The notes beneath the pieces are model-generated. The model did not search any database. It was not told where the DNA came from and saw only the letters and a list, made by a program, of their open reading frames with translations. Below, in pieces: positions 60,645 through 63,420 of a DNA stretch of 64,000 nucleotides (position 1 is its first letter; every line of letters starts with the position of its first letter). The stretch lies in contig JBPGPT010000001.1 of the NCBI GenBank assembly GCA_051047955.1, positions 682,001 through 746,000 of the forward strand. The letters are read 5' to 3'. Both the position numbers and the translations under genes were made by a program. Origin of the DNA: Cystobasidiomycetes sp. EMM_F5. Lineage: Eukaryota.

Positions 60645-63420
60645 ATGTTTTGCAATACGCCAAGTGAAGCTGCCCATACTTCTGCACTCATGCCTCTGGT
60701 CATGGACGCGCCGGGACCATCGACCACTTCCACCGTCTCAGCGTCCGGCGTGGAAGCCATTACGACTGAACTCGACGTGAATCCGCTGGTACAGACAAGC
60801 GAATTGTCCTTGGAGGAAGTCTACGATGTTGTGGGGACGTGTAGAGAGATCAGAGAACGTGGCTGGACGAGGGTTAGTCTCCTTCTGTGCGGCAATCTTC
60901 AACGCTGATTCATCTGACTTGAACAAAAAACCCAACAGGTCTGTTTGCAATTCCCAGACGAACTGCTGCATGATTCCGTATCTGTCTTCAAGGCAATCAG
61001 GAAGCGTCTTCCAGACCACGTAGAAATGTACGTGATGGCAGACACTACTTATGGAAGGTAAGCTTGCGGATGCACTGCAGCCAGGTGGTGATGCTAACGG
61101 CATCAATCATATACAGCTGCTGTGTCGACGAGGTAGCAGCGCAACACGTGGATGCGCAAGCCATAATCCACTACGGGCATGCCTGCCTGACTGCGTGAGC
61201 TTTGATTACGGCCACTCGTCACTCGCTGACTACAATTCTTGGCAACAGATCCTCGCGTCTGCCGGTGCTATACGTGTTTCCCAAGATGTCTATCGATACT
61301 CGTCACGCCCAAGAATCAATACGCACGTATCTCCGTTCGTCGGACGTTAGAAGCATTCTCGGAGACCGTAGCATCCTCGTTCTGCGAAGCGACGTCGCAT
61401 ACTACTGGCAGCTAGAGGAGCTATATCAACAGCTCAAACAAAGTCTAAGCCAGCAGTACACCTTATACAAGACGGACATCGATACCAGCGCATACCTGCA
61501 TCCTGACGCTTCTGCAGTGCCTAAAGTCATAGCGACACCCGAGCAGCAGACAGCGCCAGTGACAGATTCTGTCAGACAGACGACTCGCTCACGGTCTCGC
61601 TCAAAGTCTCATTCAGGCAAATCATTGCCCATCGTAGCAGCACCCGCTCCAGTCGCGCTGGCACAAGGTTTCTGCTGTGCCCTGCACGCATCGTCTGCCG
61701 ACGGACCCAGTGTCTGTGGATGTCGACCTGGTGATGCTATAGCTGGATGTTCAGCGAATTCCGGCGAAGCTGTCAGTCTCAAGACAAGGAGGCGGACTGC
61801 CCTCGCAACTTCGGCCAAGACGAAAACATCGACAAAGCAAGCTCTGTCGAGACCAGCACCAGTTGCTCTTGCACAAGGGTTCTGCTGCGCACCGCATGCC
61901 TCTGATCGTGACGGCCCGACCGTATGTGGGTGTCAACCTGGAGACGCGATTGCGGGTTGTTCAGCCAATTCCGGAAAGTCGGTGTCACTCAAGAAGCGAA
62001 CGCATAGCACCGGAGCAAGAAAGCCGGTGTCTGCTAAGGAGCCAGTCTCAGCTCCGGTTGCTCTAGCACAAGGCTTTTGCTGTATGCCCCATTCGACCGA
62101 TGGTCAGGCTGTCTGTGGCTGTCAGGCCAGCGACAAGATCCCAGGATGCACTGCTCATAACGCGACTAATCCAGATACTCCTCCGCGACAAGCTCCGCCC
62201 GCTCCACTCATGGAGTCCGCAACACCCCGGAAAGACACGAGTATTCACATCGTCAACGATTCAGCACCTGAAGGCGCTCAAATGCCTTCCAACAAAAACC
62301 TGCAGGAGAACGGTGTCATCATATACATCGGCGGAGAGTCTCTGACGTTGTCAAACCTGCTGTTAACGAATTCGACTACCCCAGTCATTTCGTATGACCC
62401 AAAGAGCAAGATCTGCAAAGTAGAGTCGGAGCGGACAAACAAGATGCTCATGCGCAGGTACGGTACCATTCAGCGTGCTAAGGATGCGGACGTATTTGGC
62501 ATCGTAGTCGGAACATTAGGGGCAGGTAAGCTAACCTCGATATCTGTGCTGCGGTGTTTTGCTGATATGCCGTGTTTAATTCAAGCTGCATACCTCCCAA
62601 CACTTGCCTATCTTCGAAAGCTCCTGAGACAGCACCGCAAAAAGTCGTACACCATGGCAGTAGGCAAGCTCACCCCGTCAAAGCTCGCCAATTTCCTCGA
62701 AGTGGAGTGTTGGGTACTAGTCGCGTGCGGCGAGAACTCCTTGGTGCAGGGTCACAAGGACTTTTATAAGCCCATCATCACTCCGTATGAACTGGAAGTA
62801 GCGCTTGGCGCACGTGGTTGGCTAGGTTCAGCAAGCGACGAGACTTCCACGGCGGGCATCGACGATGGCTATACTCTCGACTTTGCAAGTGTTCTCAAGC
62901 AAGCACAAAGTCGGCAGCAGACCATCGAGGATGATGCGGACCCGCATCGTGCTGAGAAAGACAGAGAAGCCGGCGATGATGCCGATGCTCCCGTCTACTC
63001 GACCGTCAGCGGAACGTATCGATATCGGCGAAACTACGGCGATAATAAGGAAATTGCGGGTATGTGGCGCCACTCGATACGCACTGTGTCTTGAACGCTG
63101 ACAGTCTGTATCAGATGCTCACGATCTAGCGAGCCAAGTTTCCGCTCTGGCTATCCGCAACAATGATTCTGCATTGGCCACAGTATTAAACGCTGCGGGC
63201 GGTAAGTAACTTTCGTAATCCACGTCAGTGGGCCACATCTTGATTACTACATCCTCCAGGTCAACACTTGGCTACGAGAATCTACAAAGGCCTCGAACCT
63301 CGGTATGGTCAAGACGAGCCGGCGGTGCTGGAAGTCGGGCGTAGCGGTATTGCAAGCCGGTATAGCGGGGATCTTGAAGCTGCAACGACAAAGTCCGTCT
63401 CGGACGGTCTCGACGAGTAG
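60645..63420 (+). CDS. DPH2: Diphthamide biosynthesis protein Dph2 with a large Cys-rich repeat insert
   Basis: [100 protein letters not shown]. Confidence 0.95.
61646..62161 (+). repeat. Three coding repeats of ~37-46 aa inside DPH2: [37 protein letters not shown]
   Basis: Copies start at ~61646, ~61856 and ~62051; amino acids are near identical while third codon positions differ. Confidence 0.95.

Follow-up and report, generated by a model that had tools for sequence, protein, structure and literature searches.

Our results show that the DPH2 gene of Cystobasidiomycetes sp. EMM_F5 encodes a true Dph2, the non-catalytic subunit of the eukaryotic Dph1-Dph2 radical SAM enzyme, and that this protein carries an insert of 254 residues with three units of a five-cysteine repeat. 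The repeat is undescribed: no family, fold or paper matched it within the databases and literature searched. Judged by their substitution pattern, the units are coding, selected at the protein level and conserved as tightly as the enzyme core. According to homology alignments, the insert occupies the loop in which archaeal Dph2 and Dph1 have their second iron-sulfur ligand; eukaryotic Dph2 appears to have lost this cysteine. The most likely reading of the units is a built-in metal-binding module.

The gene lies on the plus strand of the window, by which we mean the whole stretch of 64,000 nucleotides that was analysed. Residues are numbered as in P0013, a public 792-aa model named Dph2 from a Cystobasidiomycetes yeast. 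The features are as follows.

60645..63420, plus strand: DPH2 gene, seven exons; the exon model yields one open reading frame
60645-60872, 60939-61057, 61117-61194 and 61249-62525, plus strand: DPH2 exons 1-4
62586-63059, 63115-63201 and 63260-63420, plus strand: DPH2 exons 5-7
61118..61123, plus strand: tandem Cys102-Cys103, from sequence and anchor columns; corresponds to yeast Dph2 Cys106/107
61184..61186, plus strand: Cys124, corresponds to yeast Dph2 Cys128
61511..62272, plus strand: whole insert, residues 215-468, a low-confidence segment between well-predicted parts of the Dph2 middle domain
61646-61759, plus strand: unit R1, CC-x12-CGC-x8-C, then a conserved SGxxVSLK[TKS]R tail
61856-61969, plus strand: unit R2, CC-x12-CGC-x8-C, then the same tail as after R1
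62051-62158, plus strand: unit R3, CC-x10-CGC-x8-C, the older, divergent type
62270..62332, plus strand: return to the core before the YIG strand; aligns with the archaeal GQVLGC and Dph1 GEILGC loop, second-ligand Cys absent
62726..62728, plus strand: Cys600, corresponds to yeast Dph2 Cys362

The product is 807 aa long from the first ATG and 792 aa from the second; the two in-frame ATGs (60645-60692) are 15 codons apart, and P0013 begins at the second. All six introns are GT-AG, measure 54-66 nt and, except for the last, contain a branch-like word. P0013 falls into the same 90% cluster as the window protein, its junctions are identical to those of our seven-exon model, and it retains the repeats, which sit within the 1277-nt exon 4. 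The window protein scores 294.7 bits against TIGR00272, the DPH2 equivalog, where the cut-off is 184.05. The top Foldseek matches of its predicted structure are archaeal Dph2 (E about 1e-15), and the Pfam domain match (PF01866) is split in two around the insert. All four core cluster cysteines are kept (Cys102/103, 124 and 600). The protein shows the CC-x21-C ... C ligand pattern, with no Cys at the middle-ligand position of Dph1 and archaea; this pattern and the yeast Dph2 ligand assignments (Cys106/107, 128, 362) come from passages of PMC11048331.

Genes for Dph1, Dph3 and Dph4 are all present in the same genome. The Dph1 partner is encoded at a separate locus (G000:C68) and has the motifs YGACC, GEILGC, GRQG and CPR, while the Dph3 gene has both CSL cysteine pairs, with CPCG at the finger. 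The Dph4-like gene (J-domain plus CSL finger, L005:1429-1701, G000:C112) reads SRCG in place of CxCG: one of the four finger cysteines is apparently Ser, and an extra Cys follows a few residues past the CxxC pair. PF08608, the Tyw1 wyosine-formation domain, has no match in the whole genome, which may reflect loss of the domain, an exon interrupted by an intron or a gap in the assembly.

The initial annotation had placed three Cys/His-rich modules at 61560-62300. The three peptides that it quoted exist, in frame, in the long plus-strand DPH2 exon, and both their 15 cysteines and the basic K/R/S/T linkers are confirmed. The span itself is an envelope around the units rather than their edges (R1 begins at 61646 and R3 ends at 62158). 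Each unit has the general form PVALxQGFCC-x10/12-CGC-x8-C, with five Cys, and the array spans 513 nt. The linkers between units are Cys-free, basic and Ser/Thr-rich, with Lys and Arg making up 8 of 32 and 7 of 27 residues. A run of RSRSRSKS (61584-61616) stands before unit 1, and RSRSR occurs at the same place in the ortholog P0003; it is possibly a phosphorylation or localisation signal. The histidines are a different matter. Their distance to CGC is 9, 9 and 7 residues and not the 7 or 8 given earlier, and the three conserved His hold within the window gene only: P0003 has Leu in units 1 and 2. Hence the His is replaced in 2 of 6 units and is not invariant, and the aligned units do not support it as a conserved ligand.

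How strongly are the units conserved? R1 and R2 agree at 33 of 38 residues, but only 12 of their codons are identical. Between the three copies pS is 0.77, 0.88 and 0.88 and pN 0.08, 0.21 and 0.17, which means that silent sites are saturated. The difference between pS (0.77) and pN (0.08) for R1 and R2 has a Fisher p of 3e-12, and the other two pairs have p <= 4e-10, a contrast that is slightly inflated because the unit edges were picked by conservation. P0003, from an ENA assembly, carries all three units and is the sole other such protein among 11 matches. Its identity to the window protein is 78, 71 and 83% in the units and 77% in the C-terminal core, compared with 10 and 29% in the two linkers and 26 and 18% in the flanks. 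Across all six units of the two proteins 19 positions are invariant: the five Cys and 14 others (P, V, A, L, Q, G, F, D, G, G, D, I, G, A). P0003 also keeps most of the VSLK[TKS]R tail that follows R1 and R2 (6/8 and 5/7). R3 matches R3 of P0003 at 32 of 41 positions and the R1/R2 units at 20-25 of 41. Because R3 is nearer to its counterpart in the other organism than to its own neighbours (23-25 of 41), the split between R3 and R1/R2 predates the split of the two organisms. The earlier view that codons differ mostly at silent positions, and that these are old repeats under protein-level selection, is therefore borne out by saturated pS, low pN and conservation in the ortholog.

The location of the insert is equally informative. 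In a profile alignment the archaeal GQVLGC, which precedes the strand that matches YIG, falls on the Dph2 motif GRxYxL. Counted from the alignment, the cysteine of that loop is residue 199 of chain 3lzc, which is Cys163 if 36 leading residues are removed (the chain has 378 residues, compared with 342). In archaeal Dph2, Cys163 binds the cluster, and its counterpart in yeast Dph1 is Cys239 (passages of PMC11048331). In the Dph1 of our genome GEILGC is equally far from the aligned strand, and a Cys-rich insert is absent at this place. Eukaryotic Dph2 retains only the first and third ancestral ligand positions, according to passages of bioRxiv 10.1101/2024.09.16.613322. From the end of the insert, at about residue 468, it is 18 residues to Tyr486 in the strand. 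Taken together with the ligand-loop alignment, this places the base of the insert where the ancestral ligand loop lines the cluster cleft, and we infer from homology that the base sits at the rim of that cleft.

Within the searches made, the ordered five-Cys unit was found in two orthologs only, the window protein and P0003. In its own genome the unit pattern matches three times, always within DPH2, and no further copies were found; a loose codon pattern, applied at the nucleotide level, has 52 matches compared with 17 for the control and includes the three units. A word search with the array among proteins of 745-2125 aa, weak and crowded as it was, returned nothing at E <= 0.1. The HMMER search of 1.84 billion representatives used a 638-position profile of the whole Dph2, with matches listed down to 129 bits. 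Since two units score 164-255 bits against themselves, near-identical arrays of at least two units would have appeared among the matches listed. Single or diverged units would escape this search, because one unit scores only 71-104 bits; single diverged copies may hence exist elsewhere. A local profile of the unit matched no other protein among 161 entries (best E 0.77) and none of 114 further Dph2 proteins. Among JGI metagenomes, 3 of 162 pattern matches passed tblastn, but these are short frames with an incomplete Cys pattern on contigs of 57-63% GC, and we attribute them to chance. For viral contigs the corresponding count is 0 of 45, and phages gave no match.

The initial annotation had also asked whether the repeat is already a described Pfam domain. 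Pfam and NCBIfam hold no family for the unit, only sub-threshold matches (TNFR_nem, E 0.23), and no metallothionein family model is among the Pfam matches up to E 10 / E 1. In the ESM Atlas neither the array nor a generic loop had a usable match, which is no evidence of novelty. In the literature, searched by titles and abstract openings with few subscription journals included, nothing describes a Cys-rich insert in Dph2. Passages of papers on Dph2, including bioRxiv 10.1101/2024.09.16.613322, mention no such insert, and the words "insertion", "loop" and "cysteine-rich" are absent from the main text of PMC11048331. The supplementary alignments of these last two papers may show the loop in model species. 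As a possible origin of the unit we considered and rejected Dph2's own YGSCC motif, which can be aligned only by force and has a unit-profile score below zero.

The insertion site is a hotspot for Cys-rich loops in eukaryotic Dph2. We surveyed 160 aligned Dph2-like proteins (163 less 3 duplicates), 145 of which cover the site. In 36 of these the loop contains four or more Cys, and in 33 a CC pair; both array proteins and one same-cluster pair are among those counted. Among 134 representatives (149 less 15 that do not cover the site) about a quarter, 33, carry a Cys loop and 101 have fewer than four Cys there; loop length ranges from 0 to 268. Leaving out the two array proteins, Cys accounts for 256 of 4677 loop residues in 143 proteins (5.5%), compared with 27 of 4198 residues in 138 proteins (0.64%) for a second variable loop that serves as the control. 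The odds ratio is 8.9, about a 9-fold enrichment; as the rows are related, its p-value cannot be read literally. The commonest Cys spacing is the adjacent pair (56 cases), flanked mostly by G/S/A/T. Across five Mortierellales loops, 108 of 124 aligned pairs preserve Cys and 92 of 286 preserve Ser, bearing in mind that aligners favour C-C matches. The carriers are scattered over fungi, Capsaspora, Ichthyophonus and an amoebozoan. Those named, from 20 proteins looked up of which 19 were picked for their Cys loops, are Naganishia, Thecaphora, Violaceomyces, Wallemia, Puccinia, Actinomortierella, Mycoemilia, Polychytrium, Geranomyces, Capsaspora, Ichthyophonus and Dracoamoeba.

One could argue that such loops were recruited by the cysteines in our profile. 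When the insert was removed from the profile and the Dph2 proteins were rescored, all 33 Cys-loop proteins still reached at least 130 bits. They were hence not recruited by their cysteines, and the bias is small. A second set, dominated by Agaricomycetes (114 proteins, 100 parsed) and biased against loops by its retrieval with a loop-less profile, has the loop in 4 of 100, all four Mortierellales, which shows that whole lineages lack it. A FastTree phylogeny was built from 104 cores after excision of the loop columns. On it the 94 labelled rows (30 with and 64 without loop, 10 further, intermediate rows being unlabelled) imply a minimum of 21 changes of the trait, a count from unshuffled data in which gain and loss are indistinguishable. 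The window protein groups with P0003 and P0162 in a clade of 100% local support; the loop of P0162 is an ordinary CC loop. Because the Cys loop is widespread and occurs in this close relative, the best reading of the array is an ordered, triplicated version of it that is peculiar to this lineage; the units would either descend from the loop or have replaced it, the sequence being compatible with both. The initial annotation knew of no Dph2 with such repeats and regarded their being common in Dph2 as evidence against its proposal. That proposal is half affected, since the ordered unit is rare but the unordered CC-rich loop is common.

What could the units do? We lean, still tentatively, towards a tethered metallothionein-like Cu/Cd/Zn trap that guards the exposed cluster. 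The units would have arisen from a Cys-rich loop that eukaryotic Dph2 repeatedly gained and lost, with the loop base at the rim of the Dph2 cluster cleft. Each unit, probably a small hairpin uniting CC and CGC, would fold only around bound metal. The modules would hold Zn(II) at rest and capture soft metals, Cu(I) and Cd(II), before these displace iron from the exposed Dph1-Dph2 clusters. Diphthamide synthesis on eEF2 would thus persist under metal stress, and three units would triple the capacity, as Cys boxes do in Cryptococcus and Tremella metallothioneins. In the reported passages on CnMT1/2 and TmMT, modular boxes with spacers bind Cu additively (PMC4755600). Cu and Cd block diphthamide synthesis in Arabidopsis, and in human cells it is Cu-sensitive; the authors relate this sensitivity to surface-located clusters (passages of PMC9273596). 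We favour the metal trap because CC pairs stand among small residues and cysteines are kept while spacers drift, because Cys-free linkers separate the boxes as in the metallothioneins just mentioned, and because of the loop position combined with the published Cu/Cd sensitivity. The 19 positions invariant in six units, with five Cys each, and the enrichment of Cys in this loop over the control loop are further points in its favour. There are also points against it. The seven-Cys box of fungal Cu-thioneins of the Neurospora/Cryptococcus/Tremella type, CXC-x5-CXC-x3-CXC-x2-C (as given in part of PMC4755600), is unlike the five-Cys CC-x10/12-CxC-x8-C of our units. Only 15 of 254 insert residues are Cys, and most Dph2 proteins do without the loop (101 of 134 representatives have fewer than four Cys, as do 96 of 100 in the Agaricomycetes-dominated set). 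With its invariant hydrophobics (V, A, L, F, I) the unit looks less like a sponge than like a module that folds or docks.

It is rather unlikely, but worth considering, that the units bind Fe or [2Fe-2S] like the cysteine-rich regions (CRRs) of HapX and Yap5. They would then feed the Dph2 cluster, either by storing iron locally or relaying electrons in the repair of clusters, or by sensing iron as one unit after another is filled. Each unit contains GFC and CxC, parts of the HapX CRR-B motif CGFCX5CXC, but the motif itself is absent: its first Cys is Gln in 6/6 units and the spacer is 10-12 rather than 5 (motif from passages of PMC4232046). HapX has several CRRs that fill cumulatively in an otherwise unstructured region (PMC12390756, in part), the insert sits in the ancestral cluster-ligand loop, and the role of the Dph2 cluster is "far from clear" in passages of PMC10669111. 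Dph3 supplies electrons and iron, according to reference titles in that paper; its gene is present in our genome with both CSL cysteine pairs, which speaks against this reading and makes it unlikely that the units replace Dph3. The unit profile gives the genome's HapX-like ORF just 2.2 bits in total, and homology of the unit to HapX is thereby rejected; CGFC-x-CxC occurs 5 times in the genome and 7 times in the control. Adjacent CC pairs with free spacing, the arrangement seen in the generic loops, are more typical of Zn, Cd or Cu binding, which we count against iron. In that HapX-like ORF (L027:1363-2490, G000:C135) the CRRs have CSLC and CGLC in place of CGFC, and the GGSVPLRTPRR that follows them resembles by eye the SGxxVSLK[TKS]R tail, a likeness that is not significant by profile.

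An unlikely alternative to cluster protection is that the units are small Zn-stabilised folded modules for regulation or docking, either binding a partner or acting as a metal- or redox-sensitive degradation signal, for which the Pca1 degron is an analogy. The 14 non-Cys invariants with their hydrophobics and the conserved tail after R1 and R2 would fit such a module. Throughout residues 215-468 pLDDT is below 50, which is no proof of disorder because the underlying alignment had almost no depth there; single-sequence AlphaFold predicts a two-strand hairpin in each of the three units (pLDDT about 47-60, compared with 29-38 in the linkers). This array model is of low confidence (mean pLDDT 44.7), and a fold search with it, uninformative in itself, returned no match at Z >= 2. 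The stability of Dph1-Dph2 depends on Cys motifs (PMC11048331). A Zn module leaves unexplained the unordered loops of other lineages, that of P0162 included, all of which have Cys and no conserved scaffold. A tolerated, near-neutral expansion in a permissive surface loop would agree with the patchy distribution, with its at least 21 state changes, with the absence of the loop from most Dph2 and with its variable length. We consider it improbable, as the units are conserved like the catalytic core between orthologs and the linkers are not, pN is far below pS, and Cys enrichment is confined to the insert loop. That the array is spliced out or otherwise missing from the mature protein is hardly credible. 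Two GTATG donor-like words do lie inside it, at 61922 and 62082. The frame is open, protein-level selection is seen in two organisms, no donor-like site precedes unit 1 in the loop, the real introns (54-66 nt) are far shorter than the array (513 nt), and P0013 keeps it.

What would it mean if the metal trap, or its iron counterpart, were correct? It is possible, though we hold this larger claim with some doubt, that eukaryotic Dph2 has a previously unnoticed accessory metal-binding loop where the second ancestral ligand was lost, with at least about twenty gains or losses, which in this fungal lineage became a fixed three-unit domain. Metal at the mouth of the Dph2 cluster would then control diphthamide on eEF2, either as a Cu/Cd guard or as an iron/[2Fe-2S] station. 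A non-catalytic subunit would gain a regulatory job, and translation fidelity would be tied to metal status. The role of the cluster in the Dph2 subunit is an open question in the field (PMC10669111, in part), and Cu and Cd toxicity is known to act on diphthamide synthesis (PMC9273596, in part). Nature supplies pairs of alleles that differ in having a Cys loop at the cluster rim, and together with the site they make the role of Dph2 testable. The window gene is the cleanest version: with three discrete 38-residue units, the question whether Dph2 senses or buffers metal can be put directly in yeast. New here is a selected five-Cys repeat in a true Dph2, a small Cys module without assigned family or fold, and it draws attention to a broader trait of eukaryotic Dph2 that had gone unnoticed.

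Cys-rich appendages as such are well known, and the ordered unit rests on two sequences. CnMT1 and CnMT2 of Cryptococcus and TmMT of Tremella also have tandem Cys boxes with spacers in a basidiomycete host, with three boxes in CnMT1 as here (passages of PMC4755600). These Cu-thioneins are stand-alone proteins with seven-Cys CXC boxes, whereas our units are of the five-Cys CC/CxC/C type, have hydrophobic invariants and lie inside an enzyme. HapX and Yap5 share with the insert several short Cys modules in a disordered region and the words GFC and CxC, but their CRR has four Cys (CGFCX5CXC) and our unit five, with QGFCC-x10/12-CGC in 6/6 units. The loops of other eukaryotic Dph2 proteins (Naganishia, Wallemia, Mortierellales, Polychytrium, Capsaspora, Ichthyophonus, Dracoamoeba) resemble the window protein in site, CC pairs and small-residue flanks; they are of low complexity and free spacing and none matches the unit profile, while the window units are ordered. 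With eukaryotic Dph2 in general the window protein has the fold, the family score and the four cluster cysteines in common, and to these it adds the 254-residue insert.
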